64,000 nt of DNA, from positions 96,001-160,000 of the forward strand of contig CAVUCU010000004.1 of the NCBI GenBank assembly GCA_963740085.1, read 5' to 3'. Origin of the DNA: Nitrospirota bacterium. Lineage in GTDB: Bacteria; Nitrospirota; UBA9217. Made by a program: the position numbers and the translations under genes. Below, in pieces: positions 28,334-37,567 of the stretch; the first letter of the stretch is position 1; each line of letters begins with the position of its first letter. Below the pieces are notes generated by a model. The model was not told the DNA's origin. It did no database searches and worked only from the letters and a program-made list of their open reading frames with translations.

Positions 28334-29736
28334 AACAGACGATTCTTATTGTTGACGACAATCCGGATATGACCCGCTTGCTTGAGAGGCTCATCGGAAA
28401 TACGCTGCATCTGGAAACCCTATCCGCGGGCAGCGCAGCGGCGGCTCTGCGGATTCTCCAGGAGAAAACCATCAACTGCCTGCTTGTTGACATGAAGATG
28501 CCGGGCATGGACGGCATGGAGCTCATGCGGCGCATCAAGGAAAAGGACGCTTCCCTCCCCGTGATAATAATGACGGCCTATGGCGCCATCGAAACGGCCG
28601 TGGCCGCTATGAAAGAGGGGGCCTATGACTTCGTCACCAAGCCGTTCGAGGAGGAGCGGTTATTGCATACGGTGCGGAGGGCGATGGAGCATGAGAATCT
28701 CCTCCGGAGGAACCTGGACCTTGAAAGAAGGATCAGGGAGAAAGAACGGGAGACTTTCTTTGTCGGTGAGTCACCCCGGATGAAACAACTAATCGATACA
28801 ATTAAGCTGGTGGCCGGGACCGACGTGACCGTACTTATCACGGGCGAAACGGGGACCGGCAAGGAACTGGCGGCACGCATGATCCACAATCTTAGCAACA
28901 GGACCGGTAAACCTTTTGTGGCGGTCAACTGTCCGGCAATCCCTGAAACCATCTTAGAAAGCGAACTTTTCGGTTATCGCAAAGGTGCATTTACCGGTGC
29001 CAACTCTGACCGGGAAGGGCTTTTTCAGGCGGCACAGGGTGGGACCTTGCTCCTGGACGAGATAGGCGACATATCCTCCTCTTTGCAGGCAAAGCTCCTG
29101 AGGGTGCTGCAGGAAAGAGAACTGAAGCCATTAGGCGATACCATAACCCGGAGGGTGGATGTAAGGGTCATCGCCGCCACAAACAGGGACCTGCAGGGTA
29201 ATGTTGCCGCGGGGCTTTTCAGGTCCGACCTTTACTACCGGCTTAATGTCGTTTCGGTCAAGACGCCGCCACTCAGGGACATACCGGAAGATATACCACT
29301 CATCGCCTACCACTTTCTATCCCTGTTTTGCAGCGAGCTTGGATTGGGCCAAAAGAGGTTGACGGAAGAAGCAATACAGTTTCTTGTTTCCAGCCAGTGG
29401 AAAGGCAATGCCCGGGAACTTCAGAACGAGATAAAACGGGCGGTAATCTTTTCAAAAAGCGACCTGCTTGCGCCCGGGGATTTCGGTTCCCGCGTGGAAC
29501 TGATCACTTCGCGAAATGACGCCAATGAGACCGACAACCTCGATTACCGGGAGGCAAAGAAAAAGGTACTCGCTGCATTTAATAGTAACTATATTTCAAA
29601 CCTGCTGCGCCGCACAGGGGGAAATGTTTCCTCAGCCGCTCAGTCTGCGGGGATAGAACGCCAATCGCTCCAGCACCTTATGAGGAAGTATGGCATAGCC
29701 TCCGCCCAGTTTAGAAAAGATGAAGAAAATAAATAA
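28330..29736 (+). CDS. Sigma54-dependent response regulator (NtrC family)
   Basis: Receiver domain (DD, DMKMP), GETGTGKE, GAFTGA, DEIGD, Fis-type HTH. Confidence 0.96.
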   Translation: MKQTILIVDDNPDMTRLLERLIGNTLHLETLSAGSAAAALRILQEKTINCLLVDMKMPGMDGMELMRRIKEKDASLPVIIMTAYGAIETAVAAMKEGAYDFVTKPFEEERLLHTVRRAMEHENLLRRNLDLERRIREKERETFFVGESPRMKQLIDTIKLVAGTDVTVLITGETGTGKELAARMIHNLSNRTGKPFVAVNCPAIPETILESELFGYRKGAFTGANSDREGLFQAAQGGTLLLDEIGDISSSLQAKLLRVLQERELKPLGDTITRRVDVRVIAATNRDLQGNVAAGLFRSDLYYRLNVVSVKTPPLRDIPEDIPLIAYHFLSLFCSELGLGQKRLTEEAIQFLVSSQWKGNARELQNEIKRAVIFSKSDLLAPGDFGSRVELITSRNDANETDNLDYREAKKKVLAAFNSNYISNLLRRTGGNVSSAAQSAGIERQSLQHLMRKYGIASAQFRKDEENK

Positions 29737-29846
29737 TGGCTTATTATTTTCCGCCTCCTTAAATGCTAAAAGGAGTTTGTTTTTTATTTAGACGCCATAT
29801 AATAGAAGATAATATATAAACATGACCACTTTTATGCGAAAGATCA

Positions 29847-29949
29847 TTAAGCAGTCGTTGACAATCGAAAGTCCACTATGATATAGTGCACCCGTTGTTG
29901 TCGCTGAGAAGCGTGTACCTCAAGTGGGGTGTCCTTCCTCCGGCACCAT
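29847..29949. repeat. Att arm copy 2, ending in the tRNA-Leu 3' end
   Basis: Homologous to 20101-20204; contains TTGACA-18 nt-TATAGT facing bamD. Confidence 0.9.
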
Positions 29950-29961
29950 GTGGTAAACAGC

Positions 29962-30085
29962 AAATTCCAAATTACGAATCCCGAATAAATTCCAATTATC
30001 AAATTTCAATGACCCGGAGTCAGAAATTTGGTCTTTGATTCTTCTCTGAGCTTATTGGCGATTTGGTGCTCGTTATCTGGAATTT
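29962..30085. repeat. Inverted 7-nt period array without cargo gene
   Basis: aaattcc aaattac gaatccc gaat..aaatttc aatgacc versus atttggtgctcgttatctggaattt. Confidence 0.75.
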
Positions 30086-30094
30086 CCCCATCGT

Positions 30095-30823
30095 ATGAAA
30101 AAAATACTCATCATAGTGCTCCTTGCCCTTCTCGCCGGGTGCGCGACAAAAGAACCACCCTTCAACGCGGTGGCCGTATTCAAGGCAGCCGAAGAGAACA
30201 TGCGCACGCAATCGTTCGAAAAGGCGCGCAAGGGGTACCAGCAGATCCAGGAACGGTCTCCGGACAAGAGCTATGACGCTGACCTGATGCTTCGTGTCGC
30301 GGACACCTACTACGGCGAGGAGAAATACAGCGAGGCGCTGGTCGAGTACCAGGCCTTCCTGAACTACCATCCCGTGCACAAGGACGCGCCGTACGCCCAG
30401 TACCAGATCGCGATGTGCAACTACCAGGACCTCTCCACCATTGACCGTGACCCCGCGCCCGCCCATGCCGTGATCAGAGAGATGCGAAAGCTCATGGAAA
30501 AATATCCGCACAGCGGCTACGAAGAGCAGGCGAGAAAATATATTGCCATCTGCACGGACTGGATCGCGGAGTACGAACTTTACGTTGCGCATTTCTACTA
30601 CAAAAAGGGGTCCTACAAGGCGGCTGTGGGAAGGTGCGAGAACCTTTTGAAGGAATACCCGGGCTCGAGCTCGGAGAAGGACGCGCTCTATTATGCGGGT
30701 CTTTCGTATCAGGAACTTGGCGAGAAGGACCTGGCGCGCGCCAGGTTCGAGACACTCGCGCAGAAATATCCGGCCATGAAGACAACGGCGCTGTCCCACA
30801 TCCAACACCTGCACCTGCAATGA
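30095..30823 (+). CDS. bamD: Outer membrane protein assembly factor BamD
   Basis: LAG-C lipobox, TPRs, FLNYHP..APYAQY, IDRDP, AEYELYVAHFYYKKG. Confidence 0.9.
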   Translation: MKKILIIVLLALLAGCATKEPPFNAVAVFKAAEENMRTQSFEKARKGYQQIQERSPDKSYDADLMLRVADTYYGEEKYSEALVEYQAFLNYHPVHKDAPYAQYQIAMCNYQDLSTIDRDPAPAHAVIREMRKLMEKYPHSGYEEQARKYIAICTDWIAEYELYVAHFYYKKGSYKAAVGRCENLLKEYPGSSSEKDALYYAGLSYQELGEKDLARARFETLAQKYPAMKTTALSHIQHLHLQ

Positions 30824-31461
30824 AATTTTACCCCGTATATCTGGACCTTCGCGATCGGCCCTGCGCGGTCATCGGCGGCGGAGCGGTGGCCGAACGCAAG
30901 ACGCTCGCGCTCCTTGAAGCCGGGGCCGATGTGACGATCATAAGTCCGGCGCTCACTCCAAAACTGAAAGGTTTTTCCGACGCCGGAAAGATCACCCATT
31001 CTAAAAAACAGTATGAAGAAAGCGACCTCTCCGGCGTGTTCCTCGTGATCGCTGCTACGCCTTCGGTCGAGGTGAACACCCTCGTGGCGCGTGCATGCAG
31101 GAAGAGGCATGTGCTGGTCAATGTAGCGGTGCCTCCGGAGGAGAGCAGCTTTATCGTACCCTCGGTGGTGGAGCGAGGAGATCTTTTGATCGCGGTCTCC
31201 ACGAGCGGCGCAAGTCCGGCGCTGGCGAAGAAGATCAGACAGGACATCGAACAAAGGTATGGCGCGGAGTACGGGCTTTTCCTTGATAAAATGTCGGCGA
31301 TCCGTCATCGGGTACTTGAAAAGGTCCCTGATGGACGGAAAAGACATGAGGTGTTTCAGGAGCTCGTGGACTCCGATGTCATCGATCTCATCCGTCTCGG
31401 AAAGACGCACGAGGCGGAGCTGCGAATGGCTGAGATCGCGGGATTGAAGCACCGGGTGTAA
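30820..31461 (+). CDS. Precorrin-2 dehydrogenase / sirohydrochlorin ferrochelatase (CysG N-terminal type)
   Basis: FYPVYLDL, VIGGGAVAERK, VSTSGASPALAK; ATGA overlap with bamD. Confidence 0.92.
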   Translation: MKFYPVYLDLRDRPCAVIGGGAVAERKTLALLEAGADVTIISPALTPKLKGFSDAGKITHSKKQYEESDLSGVFLVIAATPSVEVNTLVARACRKRHVLVNVAVPPEESSFIVPSVVERGDLLIAVSTSGASPALAKKIRQDIEQRYGAEYGLFLDKMSAIRHRVLEKVPDGRKRHEVFQELVDSDVIDLIRLGKTHEAELRMAEIAGLKHRV

Positions 31462-31514
31462 GGGCAGTACTCGGTCATTTATTAGTTAAATTTTATCGTA
31501 ACTACTCAGATGTG

Positions 31515-31597
31515 GCCGCAAAAGAACGCAAGGAACTCAAAGAAAAAACCTGAATCCATGTATTTCAGTTTTAATTCTCTCTGCGATCCTTCGCGGC
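31515..31597. repeat. Inverted 10-nt period array without cargo gene
   Basis: gccgcaaaagaacgcaaggaactcaaaga ... tctctgcgatccttcgcggc. Confidence 0.7.
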
Positions 31598-31758
31598 AAA
31601 CGGATTTTGACCTGAGTAGAGACAATCTTTCTAACGGCTATGCTCCTTTCTTCGGTTGGCTCTGTCGTCTGGTCCAACCGGTCCATAATCAAGAAAGTGA
31701 GGATGGCCTTTTTCGATTTTGACCTTTCGGTTCCGGCTTGTCCGGGTTAGGGGAAAGT

Positions 31759-33744
31759 ATGAAGTCTGCAGATCAAAAAAAAGGATCATCGACCTGGCAG
31801 AATGAAGTGAAGCGTGTTGCCGCAGGCGTCCGGAAACGCGTGCTGGAACATACGATCATGAACAACGGGGGTTATCTCTCACAGGCCTGTTCATCGGCGG
31901 AGATCCTGGCGACGCTCTACGTGAAGATCATGGACCTCGGCACGATCAAGGCCCCACTCGTGCCCCTGCCGTTCCCGGGAGTGCCTGGCCCGAACAACCC
32001 TGATTACTTTACCGGCGCCTCTTTTAACGGCCCGGGTCCCGACCATGACCGCTTCTTTCTTTCTCCCGCCCAATACGCCCTGGTGCTCTACGCGACCCTG
32101 ATCGAGACGGGACGCATGGCGGAGGAAGGGCTTCTCCAGTTCAACAAGGATGGAAGTTCGGTCGAAATGATCGGCGCCGAGCATTCGCCGGGTATGGAGA
32201 CCATGACCGGCTCTCTCGGCCAGGGCATCAGCCAGGCGGCAGGCATCGCCATGGCCAGAAAGAGAAAGGAAGAGAAGGGCAGGGTGATCATCTTCATGTC
32301 CGACGGCGAGTTCCAGATCGGCCAGACCTGGGAGGCGCTCCAGTCACTGTCCTTTCACATGCTCGACAACGTGGTCATCTTCGTTGATGTGAACGGCTTC
32401 CAGTGCGACGGCAAGATGTGCACGGTCATGGACATCGAACCGCTGGACAAGCGGATCGAATCCTTCGGGGCGCGGGTGCTCAGGGTCAATGGGCACGATA
32501 TCAAGCGTCTCGCGGATGCCGGATCGCTTACCCCGGATGGACGGCCTGTTGTCGTGCTCTGCGATACCGATGCCGCACGGGGACTGGATATCCTCAAGTC
32601 GCGGGCCCCGAAGATGCACTATGTCCGCTTCACGAGCGAAGAGGAAAAGGGCCGTTATGCTGCCGCTTATGCGGAGTTGTGCGGCAGGGAGTATTCGCCC
32701 GAACAAAAGAAGGGGGCGGCGCCCGCAAGATCTTCCATCGGTCCGGAGATCGTTACCAGGGTCCACGCAAAGAACCTCGTCCGCTGGGCAGCGGACAAAC
32801 CGGAAGTGCTGGTGCTCTCTGCGGACCTCACGAGTTCAACGGAGATCGATCTGTTCAGGTCTACGTATCCCGACCGCTTTCTGTCCATGGGCGTTGCGGA
32901 ACAGAACATGCTGAGCTTTGCCGCCGGCCTTGCGCGGGAAGGTTTTATTCCCTTTGTGCATACCTTCGCGGTCTTCATCTATCGCCGCGCCTATGACCAG
33001 ATCGCGATGTCCGTCGCTTATCCGAACCTGCCGGTCCGGATGATCGGTTTTCTTCCGGGCATCACGACGCCGGGCGGGGCTACCCATCAGGCGATCGAGG
33101 ATATCGCGATCATGCGCGCGTTGCCGAACATGACTGTGCTTGAGTGCGGTGACGCGACCGAGGTGGAATCCGTCCTCGAGCTGATGCAGGAAATCAAAGG
33201 CCCGGTGTATGTGCGGATGCTGCGCGGCGAGATCCCGCGGCTCTTCAATAGTCCGATGAAATTGGGAACAGCGCGCGTCCTGACCGAAGGGAAGGATCTC
33301 GTCATTCTGTCAAGCGGCATCATGACCGAAGAGGCAATGCGGGCGGTTCAGGTCCTCCGGAAAAGGGGCCTCTCTGTTCAGCACATGCATATCTCTACAT
33401 TGAAGCCGTTCGATGATCGTTCCGTTCTCGATGCGATCAGCAGGTCGCGCTTCGGCGTCATCACCATGGAGAACCACACGGTCATCGGCGGTCTCGGCAC
33501 GATCATCGCCGAGAAGATGGCGGAATCCGGCATGTCGAAAAAACTGGTCAGGATCGGCCTGAAGGATACGTTCAGCCACGGCGCGAGCAAACAGTATCTT
33601 CTGAAGGAACACAAGATGGACGCGTTATCACTGATCAGCGAGGTTGAGGCGATGATCGGCCGGAAATTCAACATCCTGAAAGACGAATTGGCAGGGACGC
33701 ATGTAGCCGCTGTCCATAGCAAGGCCAAAGCTGAGGCGCTTTAA
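31759..33744 (+). CDS. Transketolase-family ThDP enzyme (fused N- and C-terminal parts) with a non-canonical active site
   Basis: TGSLGQG, SDGE..N ThDP motif, NGHD, SADL, GVAEQNM, RAYDQI, ATHQ, PVYVR, ENH. Confidence 0.9.
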   Translation: MKSADQKKGSSTWQNEVKRVAAGVRKRVLEHTIMNNGGYLSQACSSAEILATLYVKIMDLGTIKAPLVPLPFPGVPGPNNPDYFTGASFNGPGPDHDRFFLSPAQYALVLYATLIETGRMAEEGLLQFNKDGSSVEMIGAEHSPGMETMTGSLGQGISQAAGIAMARKRKEEKGRVIIFMSDGEFQIGQTWEALQSLSFHMLDNVVIFVDVNGFQCDGKMCTVMDIEPLDKRIESFGARVLRVNGHDIKRLADAGSLTPDGRPVVVLCDTDAARGLDILKSRAPKMHYVRFTSEEEKGRYAAAYAELCGREYSPEQKKGAAPARSSIGPEIVTRVHAKNLVRWAADKPEVLVLSADLTSSTEIDLFRSTYPDRFLSMGVAEQNMLSFAAGLAREGFIPFVHTFAVFIYRRAYDQIAMSVAYPNLPVRMIGFLPGITTPGGATHQAIEDIAIMRALPNMTVLECGDATEVESVLELMQEIKGPVYVRMLRGEIPRLFNSPMKLGTARVLTEGKDLVILSSGIMTEEAMRAVQVLRKRGLSVQHMHISTLKPFDDRSVLDAISRSRFGVITMENHTVIGGLGTIIAEKMAESGMSKKLVRIGLKDTFSHGASKQYLLKEHKMDALSLISEVEAMIGRKFNILKDELAGTHVAAVHSKAKAEAL

Positions 33745-34898
33745 TGATCATTCAAAAAACCTGCACGCCGAATTCCTTGTTCTCATTGGAACGTTTTTCC
33801 GTCACCTACCGGCTGTTCGGGGGCGAGAAGGACACGCGTGCCAAAGCCGAAGACATCTGCATTGAGCAGACCGTGGAATTTCCCGCCGATGAAGTGCCCG
33901 AGGGGATCATCAGAGACCATGTCTTCGGAAGGATCGAATCATTCGAGCGTTACGACAACGAAAGCTTCAAGGCGGTCATAAGCTATGCCGTGGAAATAGC
34001 GGCAGGCGAACTGACACAGTTCCTGAACGTTGTTTTCGGCAACAGCAGCATCAAGCCGGGCGTCAGGGTGGAGCACCTCGATCTGCCTGAATCGCTGGTT
34101 CGTTGCTTCAAAGGGCCGCGCTTCGGCAGGGTGGGATTACGAAACCTTCTGCAGGCCCCGAAGCGGCCGCTTCTTTCCACTGCGCTCAAACCCATGGGGC
34201 TTTCGTCACAGGAGCTTGCGGACCTGGCATACCAGTTCACCCTCGGGGGCATGGACCTCATCAAGGACGACCACGGACTGAGCAATCAGAGCTGTTCGCC
34301 ATTTGAGGAACGGGTCAGCCTTTGCGCTGCCGCAGTACAGAGGGGAAACAAGGAGACAGGCCAGCGCACGCTCTATGTGGCGAATATTACCGCTCCCCAC
34401 AGCGAGGTCATACAAAGAGCCCGCTTCGCGAAACGAGCCGGCGCGGGCGGCCTGATGGCAGCGCCGGGACTGATCGGCTTTGATCTGATGCGGGAACTTG
34501 CTGATGACGATTCGCTCGCGCTGCCGATCCTGACGCATCCGGCGTTGCAGGGAAGTTTTGTGGCCAGCCGGAACGGCATCTCGCACGGAGTCATCTTCGG
34601 CCAGCTCGCGCGCCTTGCAGGCGCGGACGCGACCATCTTCCCGAACTACGGCGGACGCTTTTCATTCAGCCGGGACGAGTGCAAAGAGATCGCCGGCGCA
34701 ACCTCGGCGCCGATGGGTCATCTCAAGTCGATCTTTCCCGCGCCGGGAGGAGGCATGAACCTCGAGAGGGTGCCGGAGATGATCGAGACCTACGGCCGGG
34801 ACCTAATTTTTCTGATCGGCGGGGGGTTGTTCAAGCACGGACCCGACCTTGTTGAGAACTGCCGGTATTTCAGAAAAATAGTGGAGGCGATGCAATAA
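33744..34898 (+). CDS. RuBisCO-like protein (form IV)
   Basis: IEQTVE, FKGPRFG, LKPMG, IKDDHG, HPA, RLAGAD, PAPGGG, IGGG; 384 aa; TAATG-coupled to the upstream gene. Confidence 0.93.
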   Translation: MIIQKTCTPNSLFSLERFSVTYRLFGGEKDTRAKAEDICIEQTVEFPADEVPEGIIRDHVFGRIESFERYDNESFKAVISYAVEIAAGELTQFLNVVFGNSSIKPGVRVEHLDLPESLVRCFKGPRFGRVGLRNLLQAPKRPLLSTALKPMGLSSQELADLAYQFTLGGMDLIKDDHGLSNQSCSPFEERVSLCAAAVQRGNKETGQRTLYVANITAPHSEVIQRARFAKRAGAGGLMAAPGLIGFDLMRELADDDSLALPILTHPALQGSFVASRNGISHGVIFGQLARLAGADATIFPNYGGRFSFSRDECKEIAGATSAPMGHLKSIFPAPGGGMNLERVPEMIETYGRDLIFLIGGGLFKHGPDLVENCRYFRKIVEAMQ

Positions 34899-35031
34899 GG
34901 TTAATCGTGCAAAGCACCGGGTTCCAGGTCCTGAGTGCTGACTGAACGGCAACAATGTTTAAATTTGATACTAGAAGCTTATCCTCTTTCTAACGCTCGG
35001 ACTTTTAAGCCCGTAGCTGGCGAGGCCACTT

Positions 35032-36225
35032 ATGCAAACAAAAAAGCTGCTCCTCGGAAGTTCGCTGGTCCTTTACTTTGTCATTGCCTTTGAAGTCTTG
35101 ATCATGATCAGCCCCTTTGCGGGCTTCTTCTACTCGGTCTTTAACCCGTTGCTGCTCAATCTCGCGAGCCGTCCCTCAACGCGATGGCTCAGCGCCTTTT
35201 ACCTGCCGCACATGGTCCTGCCTCAGGACCCGCTCCTTCAGTTCGTGCGCATCATGGGATCGGTCCTCTTCGTTTTCGGGATGGCGATCTTTTTCGTGTG
35301 CGCCGGCCAGATTTACTTCGCCAAATTCACTAAAAAGGGTGCCGTCCTGGGCGGCCTGTACGCCTATATCCGGCATCCTCAGTACCTTGCACTGGGGATA
35401 GCGGGCCTCGGGCTTTCCATCCTCTGGCCGCGTTTTTTAACTATCGTACTATGGCTCGCTATGGCATTGGTATATTATTTTCTTGCCAAGGATGAAGAAC
35501 GAAGGATGCTGAATGCACATGAGGCGACCTATCGTTCGTACATGGATAAGACCGGGATGTTTTTGCCGGGGAGGTTGGAAAAATCTTTGACTCCATCCTC
35601 AACTATCGGGAAGGTCGTTTTCGCAATCGGACTCGCAGCAATGGTCATTGGAACAGCTTTCTTTCTCCGCATGCATACAATCAGGCAACTGACACTCTGG
35701 ACAAAAGCGCCCAACGTGGTCGGCATCGCCATCCTGCCCGAGGACGGATTCAAGATGGAGCACCGGATGAGCGACATTTGTTCACTTCCGGAAGTACAGT
35801 CACGGATACAGGACAATAAAAAGTACCTCGTCTATTTTATTCCGCGGGACTATATTATGCAGGGCATGATCGCGGATACCGGCGGGGACTGGAGGCTTTA
35901 TAATCAGCACCACTCTTTGTCCATGATCTCTGACTGGGTGTTCCATCCCTTCCGGCATCTCAGAGAAGGGCATCACGCAATGCATGGCGCGATGCAGATG
36001 CAGCATCCGGGGAACGAGGCACCGGCGGGCGGCGTGGTCCGGAGACTCATCTTTCTTTCGATCGAGGATATTGAAGTGAATTCTCCGGATGACCTATTCT
36101 CGATCAATGCCCTTCGCGTTCCGCGGTTCATGGTGGATGTGGACGTGCACGCCCTGCAACTGATCGAGGTCAAGGACCTCGCGCACGGGAGCGGGTGGGG
36201 GACCGTTCCGACGCCGGTGTTCTGA
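35032..36225 (+). CDS. ICMT/PEMT-family membrane methyltransferase with a His-rich soluble C-terminal domain
   Basis: GLYAYIRHPQY, DEERRM, Y..KTGMFLP; tail FHPFRHLREGHHAMHG. Confidence 0.8.
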   Translation: MQTKKLLLGSSLVLYFVIAFEVLIMISPFAGFFYSVFNPLLLNLASRPSTRWLSAFYLPHMVLPQDPLLQFVRIMGSVLFVFGMAIFFVCAGQIYFAKFTKKGAVLGGLYAYIRHPQYLALGIAGLGLSILWPRFLTIVLWLAMALVYYFLAKDEERRMLNAHEATYRSYMDKTGMFLPGRLEKSLTPSSTIGKVVFAIGLAAMVIGTAFFLRMHTIRQLTLWTKAPNVVGIAILPEDGFKMEHRMSDICSLPEVQSRIQDNKKYLVYFIPRDYIMQGMIADTGGDWRLYNQHHSLSMISDWVFHPFRHLREGHHAMHGAMQMQHPGNEAPAGGVVRRLIFLSIEDIEVNSPDDLFSINALRVPRFMVDVDVHALQLIEVKDLAHGSGWGTVPTPVF

Positions 36226-36354
36226 AAGAAAACTTGTTTTTTGCAACGTCAAAAGGACGACCAGTGGAAACCTTCTTGTAAATAATATCCCCTTCGTTCC
36301 GCGCGGGCGTTCCGAGAGGAGCGCTTTCGTCGTAACGCCTTGCTCCCGTTCGTT

Positions 36355-37327
36355 CTATCCCTTCCTTGCTGTCAGCACGACGGTGTCCCCGAGGACCATC
36401 GTCTTAATGCTTCTAAAGCCCGTCTTTATGAGCCACGCCTTCATCTCCTGGACAGTATAACTTCTGCCTGCCGCAGTATTGACGAGCATATTGACGGAGA
36501 AGAGCGCGCCGGGGACCGGGAAGGCCCTGTTGTTTTCCAGGAAGAACTCGTGGATAGCGATCCTGCCTTTCGGGTTCAGCGCATCCCGGGATTTATTCAG
36601 AAGCGCAAGGCTTTCATCCTTGGAAAGAGAATGCAGTATCTGGCTGACGAACACCAGGTCGTAGTTGTCTCCCGATATCATCGGAATGATAATCGCCGCC
36701 GATAAATTCAATGCTCCTGACCTTCGATGCCTTGACGATCTTCCTCGCGATATCGACGGTATCGGGCAGGTCGAAGAGCGTGACCGTCATGCCGTGCCGG
36801 GCAAGTTCCATGCTGTAGGTCCCGGGACCGCCGCCGAGGTCGAGCGCCTTTTTCACGTTGCTCAGGTCAAGGGCCCCGATCACCGTGCTTGCGCGAAAGA
36901 CCGCATTGTTATGCATGGCCATGATGAACGACTCGTGATCACGGCCCCCTGAACGGTTCGGCAGGCCGGTCTTCATGACCTCGTCGAGCCCGGACCAGTT
37001 CTTCCAGAGCGCGTCCGAATGGCGAAGCATGTCGCCCTGGTACCAGGGCGATTCTTTCAGGAGAAATTTTTTCGCCAGGACCGCATTGTGATACGTCGCT
37101 CCTGTTTTCTTGAGCAGTCCGAGGGCCGTAACCGCATCAAGCAGGATCTCCGTTGCCCGCACATCGGTCTTGATCTTCCCCGCAAGCCAAATCGCGGTCT
37201 TCGGTGTCTTGAGGTGTTCAAAGACCGCGTAATTGTTCGCGGTCAGTATCACGCGAGATGCTCGGAACCCGCCCGAGAGCCGCATAAAAACCTGCATCTG
37301 GTTCATAGTGTCTTTGTTCATTGGCAT
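36355..37327 (-). pseudogene. SAM-dependent O-methyltransferase (dimerisation plus MTase domains), +1 frameshift at about 36672
   Basis: LDLGGGPG and FDLP in ORF 36614..37327; SQILH and AIHEF in ORF 36355..36711; removing one G from atcgggagac restores DDIGDNYDL. Confidence 0.85.
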
Positions 37328-37567
37328 GTCCTTTCTTTCTCTTCAGCCGTCATTCCCGAGAAAAGAGTGATCCGATCTCCTGGTTTTGACTGGCAGTGTC
37401 CAAACACATCATAGCGCACGATCCAAGGAGAAGTCAATGACTCAACCTGAAATAGGCTTGAAATTGCCCCGGATTTGAACGATAATCCAACTTCAGAGGC
37501 ATCGAAGGCAAGAGCTCCAATGCTCACCAATCGGTATCTTGACGTGAAGCCTGCGCGAACAATATCG

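Follow-up and report, generated by a model that had tools for sequence, protein, structure and literature searches.

5'-Methylthioadenosine (MTA) as well as 5'-deoxyadenosine are unavoidable and inhibitory by-products of S-adenosylmethionine (SAM) chemistry, and for many anaerobes and uncultured lineages we know of no route that disposes of them. Rhodospirillum rubrum and Rhodopseudomonas palustris have an MTA-isoprenoid shunt in which MtnP and MtnA are followed by a form IV RuBisCO-like protein (RLP) of the DeepYkr kind, then by the cupin 1-methylthio-xylulose-5-phosphate methylsulfurylase and by O-acetylhomoserine sulfhydrylase (PMC5893883; PMC6302742). The window analyzed here, a stretch of 64,000 nucleotides from a Nitrospirota bacterium (assembly GCA_963740085.1, contig CAVUCU010000004.1, positions 96,001 to 160,000), encodes an RLP that by sequence belongs to the same kind, directly behind a thiamine diphosphate (ThDP)-dependent enzyme of the transketolase family (hereafter TK-like enzyme; Table 1). 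This TK-like enzyme is the genetic partner of the DeepYkr-like RLP and stands where the cupin stands elsewhere. The comparison suggests an RLP-dependent salvage route for SAM waste with a new second enzyme, and the combination of RLP and TK-like enzyme seems to be undescribed: a full-text search found no paper that connects either MTA salvage or an RLP with an enzyme of the transketolase type, within a scope that subscription journals, approximately 1.7 million PMC articles and supplements lay beyond. A 2023 survey of the methylerythritol phosphate (MEP) pathway, in its passages on RLPs, considers the combination of RLP and cupin only (PMC10663253).

The two genes overlap, as the initial annotation had stated, in a TAATG (33742-33746) in which the stop codon of the TK-like gene (TAA, 33742-33744) and the start codon of the RLP gene (ATG, 33744-33746) have one base in common. 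The TK-like gene begins at the ATG 3' of GGGGAAAG; an alternative, longer frame begins with TTG at 31738. How general is this arrangement? A scan of one genome per species with the TK-like enzyme gave at least 598 matching stretches, and the best 79 loci of these form the locus set used below. Seventy-three hold members of the same clade, about 50-95% identical to the window enzyme, and six hold ordinary transketolases, at which identity drops sharply to 33-37%. Co-occurrence of the clade with RLP, mtnP and mtnA had been named as a test, and the survey bears it out: the linkage to the RLP is tight, and mtnA, mtnK or mtnP is often linked as well. Among the 64 clade loci with at least 1200 bp of downstream sequence, 47 have an RLP, in 43 cases no more than 1.7 kb away and on the same strand; with at least 7 kb downstream the count is 39 of 48, and at the ordinary transketolase loci it is 0 of 6. 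Of five genomes checked that lack adjacency, three encode an RLP orthologue at another site (84, 77, and 64% identity), in one case beside mtnA; no such orthologue was found in the other two (L064 and L066).

The two genes also go together across genomes. Of 201 Nitrospirota genomes, 38 have the TK-like orthologue (33 of the 45 that belong to the window's family and five of six in a second family, nowhere else), and the genomes with the RLP orthologue are precisely these 38; both are missing from 11 members of the own family, and a related RLP (52-61% identity) without a TK-like gene was found in three genomes only. Both genes are present in the same five of 151 Spirochaetota genomes, always adjacent, and the other 146 are without both at the thresholds used. 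In one genome the genes also appear to decay together: at G207:C15:1032373-1035518, probably the same contig as locus L040, the TK-like gene is interrupted by six TGA and two TAG codons and the adjacent RLP gene by TGA and TAG codons. Finally, they fuse. Fourteen of 53 long RLP relatives carry transketolase domains, 27 a cupin domain and 12 neither, and 13 of the 14 are full fusions of an N-terminal RLP with a C-terminal transketolase (protein clusters, 1021-1363 amino acids). The fusions with a named source are from diatoms (Thalassiosira, Cyclotella, Skeletonema), and in the transketolase part identity to the window enzyme is 45-50%, along the full length in 11 of 13. Because synteny, phyletic profile, joint decay and fusion are four independent lines that point in the same direction, the TK-like enzyme and the RLP are very probably coupled in function.

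The RLP itself, the sole RuBisCO-family gene of its genome, matches PF00016 with 114 bits and contains the KDDHG motif noticed earlier, whose lysine presumably occupies the position of the carbamylated lysine of RuBisCO. The nearest curated models are those of mtnW, below their cut-offs (PRK09549, 230 vs. 409 bits; TIGR03332, 180 vs. 514), and the model of the apionate enzyme OiaX gives 81 bits for a cut-off of 700. The best solved relative is 3qfw_A (252 bits, E 7e-74), which we take to be R. palustris RLP1. Next come YkrW-type enolases (181-150 bits) and then Photo-type RLPs, with 3nwr a distant match (85 bits). Fusions with Cupin_2 make up 26 of the 33 long representatives among the 150 nearest RLP clusters at 50% identity. 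In the trees the whole set is separated from a YkrW-like RLP and a PRK-linked RuBisCO with support of 98-99, and all RLPs linked to the TK-like enzyme, including that of the window, fall in a clade of 54 together with the cupin fusions and the cupin-adjacent RLP of locus L096 (Shimodaira-Hasegawa-like approximate likelihood-ratio test, SH-aLRT, 96). Since the nearest long RLPs are mostly cupin-fused, and a cupin follows the DeepYkr RLP in the MTA-isoprenoid shunt, the window RLP is classified by sequence as DeepYkr, kin to the 5-methylthioribulose-1-phosphate isomerases. The low scores for OiaX and 3nwr set it apart from sugar-acid RLPs, and the phylogeny agrees with the placement first proposed.

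TK-linked RLPs from bacteria group together, 32 in all, with support of 84. A single clean clade of all TK-linked RLPs was considered and rejected, as the label needs six changes on both trees, at least three of them forced by well-supported branches. By their domains, three further RLP relatives are fusions, of 726 amino acids with an inositol-monophosphatase family protein (P0185), of 674 with a ThiF family protein (P0273) and of 743 with a SorC-type sugar-binding domain (P0278), and some of these may be gene-calling artefacts. Three loci of Nitrospirota family f9 (L098, L102, and L103) have an RLP 39-52% identical to that of the window, followed by a radical SAM protein of 725-833 amino acids with weak matches to PhpK or B12-type methyltransferases; L098 and L102 also have, immediately upstream and on the opposite strand, a 3-hydroxyisobutyrate-dehydrogenase-like gene. 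Neither a cupin nor a TK-like gene was found among the flanking genes scanned at these three loci, and the arrangement may be a third kind of RLP partner.

Where, then, is the cupin? With three cupin queries, tblastn gave nothing at E <= 1e-3 in the window's own genome (98.5% complete) or in the 79 loci, and Cupin_2 was not found among the window neighbors scanned, in keeping with the early remark that none is present here. A sister genus, by comparison, has one. Genome G079, of the same family as the window, encodes in a row an RLP, an alpha/beta hydrolase, Cupin_2 and O-acetylhomoserine sulfhydrylase (MetY; 596 bits, cut-off 495); no TK-like orthologue was found in it, and its RLP nests inside the clade of TK-linked RLPs. 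Similarly, ten diatom fusions of RLP and transketolase (support 99) nest in a clade of six RLP-cupin fusions (SH-aLRT 97) and are sister to one of these (support 100). Exclusion of the cupin had been named as a test, and in both comparisons, the sister genus and the sister fusion proteins, the cupin is found with the RLP as the alternative partner. Next to one kind of RLP, cupin and TK-like enzyme have thus taken each other's place on more than one occasion. This repeated swap is the strongest argument that both use the product of the RLP, and we regard it as probable that the TK-like enzyme acts on that product in place of the cupin.

The domains of the TK-like enzyme are Transketolase_N (PF00456, partial, residues 95-270), Transket_pyr (PF02779) and Transketolase_C (PF02780); phosphoketolase families are absent from its Pfam matches. 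It scores below every curated transketolase and 1-deoxy-xylulose-5-phosphate (DXP) synthase cut-off, the best model being NF004559 (371 bits, cut-off 488), with NF004556 (225, 575), TIGR00232 (111, 682) and the DXP-synthase model TIGR00204 (191, 466) further away. The active site was aligned with those of E. coli TktA (NC_000913.3), human transketolase, ordinary split transketolases and the transketolase paralogues of the own genome, and the substituted contacts are numbered as in TktA. The motifs cited (TGSLGQG, SDGE...N, AEQ, MHY, and PGGATHQ) are all in the translation, and D182, N212, and E381 align with D155, N185, and E411. Conserved with respect to TktA are G114, D155, N185, H261 (here H287), S385, E411 (E381), F434, F437, H473 (H443), and R520 (R489).

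The contacts to the sugar are another matter. The initial annotation had listed H26, H66, H100, and D469 as lost, and all four are replaced in the window enzyme (Table 1). Those of H26, H100, and D469 proved to be common to the clade; that of H66 did not, as about half of the N-parts and all diatom fusions keep the histidine. The list had also missed H461, here a leucine, and the phosphate-binding arginines are retained. R358, which seems to be without counterpart in one alignment, pairs with R334 in three others; R or K stands at this position throughout the clade, and R358 is probably kept. The substitutions H26Y, H100I, H461L, and D469G span at least ten bacterial phyla and the diatoms, and every fusion that covers the positions has Y26, I100, L461, and G469. 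Ordinary relatives retain H26, H66, and H100 in six of six cases and H461 and D469 in six of seven. The proline-rich insertion, already recognized at first sight, occurs in all clade members shown, diatom fusions included, and is absent from E. coli TktA, from the transketolase on contig C3 of the own genome and from the ordinary split transketolase of locus L081. In transketolase H100 contacts the donor end, and its exchange for L, F or T in the E. coli or Geobacillus enzyme raises the use of pyruvate or alkyl keto acids; D469 is a hotspot of acceptor specificity (10.1101/719906; PMC11997939). H100I removes the contact to the donor C1 hydroxyl, and the natural isoleucine, I138, fits a C1 that carries CH3 or CH2SCH3.

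Table 1. Features of the gene pair, with positions in the window. The counts of N-parts and C-parts leave out L058_N, a wrong open reading frame (ORF).
Feature	Position	Strand	Basis
Upstream intergenic region, 297 bp	31462..31758	+	No regulatory element recognized
TK-like enzyme (transketolase-family ThDP enzyme), 661 amino acids, N- and C-parts fused	31759..33744	+	Pfam, NCBIfam, alignments
Y39 in place of H26	31873..31875	+	Y in 22/22 clade N-parts
Clade-specific Pro-rich insertion, residues ~61-92 (~28 amino acids), just before DRFFLSPAQYA	31939..32034	+	Alignment
Q105 in place of H66	32071..32073	+	Lineage-specific; Q in 12, H in 10 of 22 N-parts
I138 in place of H100 (donor C1-OH contact)	32170..32172	+	I in 22/22 clade N-parts
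E381, cofactor-activating glutamate E411, kept	32899..32901	+	Alignment
L432 in place of H461	33052..33054	+	L in 25/25 clade C-parts
G439 in place of D469 (acceptor C2-OH contact)	33073..33075	+	G in 25/25 clade C-parts
Form IV RLP, predicted DeepYkr kind, 384 amino acids	33744..34898	+	Pfam RuBisCO_large, 3qfw_A, tree
K174 of the KDDHG motif	34263..34265	+	Translation; K174 and D176 invariant in 20 RLPs

The clade is large. Over 120 protein clusters are 80% or more identical to the window enzyme. Locus L033 is from the cultured Sporotomaculum syntrophicum, and the hosts of the clade belong to the Nitrospirota, Bacillota, Spirochaetota, Planctomycetota, Myxococcota, Chloroflexota, Vulcanimicrobiota, Synergistota, Acidobacteriota and, in one case, the Alphaproteobacteria. 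The enzyme is in one piece in the Nitrospirota and in one Treponema; elsewhere it comes as two ORFs, an N-terminal one (about 310 amino acids) and a C-terminal one (about 335). Where the sources name these proteins at all, the names are "transketolase" or "ribulose-bisphosphate carboxylase large chain."

Genes of MTA metabolism accompany the pair in several phyla. In the own genome mtnA (438 bits) and mtnP (329 bits) score above their cut-offs and are encoded elsewhere than the pair; no class II aldolase (MtnB/Ald2) and no acireductone dioxygenase (ARD, MtnD) were found in it. In a Spirochaeta (L036) the order is TK-N, TK-C, RLP, a regulator, a sugar ATP-binding cassette (ABC) transporter, mtnK and mtnA. 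Both mtnK and mtnA are also present in the clusters of L072 and of a Treponema contig, mtnA in L046 and L055, and mtnP in L039. The Treponema contig (G008:C245, with L044 and L108) holds a run of genes of about 17 kb in the same direction, encoding a class II aldolase, a probable binding protein, a sugar ABC transporter, MtnK, MtnA, a PduL-type phosphotransacylase, an EutN-like vertex protein, an acylating aldehyde dehydrogenase, an RnfC/PduS-like protein, a PduT-like shell protein, the fused TK-like enzyme and the RLP; it looks like a microcompartment locus for methylthio- or 5-deoxy-ribose. Within the window's family, mtnA and a class II aldolase occur in five of five tested genomes without the pair, and the aldolase is absent from four of six genomes with it.

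Taken together, these data lead us to favor, by a modest measure, a module of two enzymes that would clear the 5-substituted pentose of SAM chemistry through the RLP and cleavage by the TK-like enzyme. The module would serve MTA and probably 5'-deoxyadenosine too. MtnP and MtnA would make 5-methylthio-ribulose-1-phosphate or 5-deoxy-ribulose-1-phosphate, and a shift of the carbonyl by the RLP, a reaction that its relatives in Rhodospirillum and Rhodopseudomonas have been shown to carry out, would give 1-methylthio-xylulose-5-phosphate or DXP, analogs of xylulose-5-phosphate without the C1 hydroxyl. The TK-like enzyme would then take the place of the cupin methylsulfurylase: ThDP would attack C2, the C2-C3 bond would break and glyceraldehyde-3-phosphate (G3P) would leave, with the C2 unit, bearing CH2-SCH3 or CH3, staying on ThDP. 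That unit might lose methanethiol by beta-elimination to give acetyl-ThDP and from it acetate or acetyl-phosphate, or it might be protonated and released as (methylthio)acetaldehyde or acetaldehyde. The comparison shows the genetic coupling, the kinship of the RLP with DeepYkr, the swap with the cupin and the rebuilt pocket; substrate, cleaved bond and fate of the C2 unit are inferred. For cleavage between C2 and C3 to G3P the case is somewhat better than even.

Elimination of methanethiol is a more tentative step. In phosphoketolase and Xsc, a C2 carbanion on ThDP expels a beta leaving group (water or sulfite), and the resulting acetyl-ThDP yields acetyl-phosphate. With these two as analogs the elimination is chemically attractive, and it fits the Cys/Met-family pyridoxal phosphate (PLP) enzyme genes that adjoin the TK-like gene in seven Nitrospirota loci and in L046; by this analogy it may occur, with a probability that we put at roughly one chance in three. 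At a similar, distinctly tentative level, the clade might be named "methylthio-ketolase," an enzyme that would cleave 1-methylthio-xylulose-5-phosphate and expel methanethiol, with G3P, methanethiol and acetyl-phosphate or acetate as products. Upstream of the TK-like gene, threonine-synthase-like and Cys/Met PLP genes were noted in L016, L029, L018, L006, L011, L017, and L047, loci that lack an RLP or have it several kb away; in L016 and L029 they lie on the opposite strand, divergent from the TK-like gene. The only close Cys/Met PLP gene of the own genome (G000:C5:349756-350917) is matched by the sulfhydrylase model in pieces and in different frames, and may be frameshifted or reflect an assembly error.

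Several observations speak against cleavage of the RLP product as set out above. The invariant changes D469G and H461L sit where the unchanged G3P half should bind, which the model does not predict. No O-acetylhomoserine sulfhydrylase scores above the cut-off in the own genome to recapture methanethiol, and an activity that cleaves DXP would oppose the genome's own Dxs. A class II aldolase is present in two of the six genomes with the pair, so that complementarity is partial, and the aldehyde-handling genes of the Treponema can be explained by the class II aldolase of the same operon. A Brevibacillus (L064) and a spirochaete (L066), whose best RLP matches are 31% and 26% identical, respectively, have the TK-like enzyme without a DeepYkr-like RLP, in contexts of sugar or polyol genes (phosphotransferase system (PTS) components, AraD-like epimerase, Zn dehydrogenase, DhaKL), and in L076 a 50%-identical clade member is paired with a YkrW-like RLP of 434 amino acids. 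These last three cases suggest that the clade has a somewhat broader role, on C1-modified xylulose phosphates. In L064 the clade member lies beside a PTS-Gat IIC component, a Zn dehydrogenase and an AraD-like class II epimerase or aldolase; L076 also holds PTS genes, a Zn dehydrogenase and a haloacid dehalogenase (HAD) phosphatase.

The closest competing explanation keeps the module and the C2-C3 cleavage but lets the C2 unit leave as an aldehyde, (methylthio)acetaldehyde from MTA and acetaldehyde from 5'-deoxyadenosine. The pair would then be the G3P-forming counterpart of the dihydroxyacetone phosphate (DHAP) shunt, with sulfur recovered later or the aldehyde reduced or oxidized. Genes for Zn-dependent alcohol dehydrogenases, which recur in six loci (L033, L045, L064, L065, L072, and L076), agree with this, as does the Treponema operon that joins the pair with an acylating aldehyde dehydrogenase, a PduL-type phosphotransacylase and shell genes. 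The microcompartment genes were considered as proof of an aldehyde product, but the class II aldolase of that operon could itself be the aldehyde source and weakens them. An enamine with a beta-thioether should, moreover, readily lose the thiolate, and the Cys/Met PLP genes beside the TK-like gene fit free methanethiol, weakly. Release as an aldehyde is thus a serious but rather unlikely outcome. It is less likely still that the pair serves another sugar pathway, for instance imported deoxy-pentoses or pentitols, with a different RLP reaction and an incidental link to MTA. Sugar ABC and PTS transporters, DeoR/SorC regulators, DhaKL and an AraD-like epimerase do adjoin clade members, and the two genomes with the TK-like enzyme but no DeepYkr-like RLP would be accommodated. 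However, in several phyla the clusters themselves include mtnK, mtnA or mtnP, the alternative partner is a cupin specific to the MTA-isoprenoid shunt, and for the product of mtnP and mtnA in the own genome no other recognized outlet was found; we consider this explanation improbable.

Could the TK-like enzyme act before the RLP, or as a carboligase that builds the ketose from a hydroxyethyl or methylthio-acetyl unit and an aldehyde, as DXP synthase does? The bacterial gene order, TK before RLP, would suit this, and engineered transketolases with H100L and D469 changes are reported as 1-deoxy-ketose synthases (10.1101/719906; PMC11997939). The diatom fusions have the reverse order, though, and the cupin that is replaced acts after the RLP (PMC5893883; PMC6302742). 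A role as replacement for DXP synthase was likewise rejected, given that the own genome has a normal dxs (C4:84756-86603, 48% identical to E. coli Dxs), and synthesis of the ketose is very improbable. Least probable of all, to the point of being negligible, is an ordinary transketolase of the pentose phosphate pathway that lies beside an RLP by chance. The transketolase fold and cofactor motifs are what one would then see, but four substrate contacts are replaced throughout the clade, the scores fall below every transketolase cut-off, other paralogues with canonical residues are present in the genome, and the enzyme is co-inherited and fused with the RLP.

An Rfam scan gave no match in window 29500-37500 at E <= 0.1, and none at the gathering score in nine loci. 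No sigma-70-like or sigma-54-like site was found in the 297-bp upstream region, where scans did no better than on shuffled sequence. A 397-residue membrane protein with weak matches to PEMT/ICMT-type methyltransferases is encoded 3' of the RLP (window 35032-36225, + strand), with homologs in five further Nitrospirota loci (L007, L010, L015, L021, and L041), in L010 downstream of the RLP; an O-methyltransferase-like ORF lies on the opposite strand (window 36614-37327, - strand). A carboxymuconolactone-decarboxylase/AhpD-like (CMD) protein of 158 amino acids follows the TK-like gene after a gap of 58 bp in L028 (L028:10050-10526), and a CMD-family gene is likewise found 3' of the TK-like gene in L007, L012, L015, L017, L019, L031, L035, and L045, all Nitrospirota. 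The window has no CMD-family gene between the TK-like gene and the RLP.

What would such a module mean? In the own genome mtnP, mtnA and the RLP are found and the known next enzymes (MtnB, Ald2, and the cupin) are not, and the TK-like step, if true, would close the pathway in a wide set of bacteria and in diatoms. It would be a new natural reaction for the transketolase family, at positions that engineers mutate for 1-deoxy-ketose chemistry, and organisms might produce methanethiol or C2 aldehydes through it. It would also correct a widespread automatic annotation, under the two names given above. Should the more specific "methylthio-ketolase" proposal hold, it would be a third RLP-dependent, oxygen-independent salvage route for methionine and SAM waste, in at least ten bacterial phyla, and diatoms would run the same route with a single fused, bifunctional protein.

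Among known systems, the MTA-isoprenoid shunt shares the first three enzymes and the kind of RLP with the window's genome, and its full operon of RLP, cupin and MetY is found in the sister genus. The own genome differs in having a ThDP enzyme in place of the cupin. ThDP chemistry is incapable of the thiol-dependent reduction to DXP, and the expected products therefore differ as well, G3P and a C2 unit as opposed to DXP. The DHAP shunt (MtnP or MtnN/MtnK, MtnA, and the class II aldolase Ald2) has the same feed and the same logic of a split into triose phosphate and C2 unit. It uses one aldolase to form DHAP, whereas the pair would use an isomerase and a ThDP lyase to form G3P; the two have a partly complementary distribution in the window's family, and both are present in the Treponema operon.

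With canonical transketolases (E. coli TktA, human TKT, and the split Carboxydothermus enzyme, PDB 6yaj/6yak) the TK-like enzyme shares the three-domain fold, the ThDP/Mg motifs, E411, H261, H473, S385, R520, and probably R358, and like the short transketolases it comes in split or fused forms. The clade is set apart by H26Y, H100I, H461L, and D469G, the insertion of 28 amino acids, identity of only about 33-42% to ordinary transketolases and scores below the cut-offs. The likeness to phosphoketolase and Xsc is one of proposed working, and the TK-like enzyme is not a member of these families. Dxs belongs to the same ThDP superfamily; the DXP that it makes is among the substrates proposed here, and the proposed reaction resembles that of Dxs reversed without CO2. 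Engineered transketolases (E. coli H100L/D469E or T; Geobacillus TKgst H102L/L118I/H474S) have the same positions, H100 and D469, made hydrophobic or small, and handle a C1 methyl or alkyl group in place of CH2OH, as is proposed for the TK-like enzyme (10.1101/719906; PMC11997939). As reported there, they are laboratory variants that work in the synthetic direction with keto-acid donors, whereas the TK-like enzyme is natural, keeps H473 and has also changed H26 and H461.

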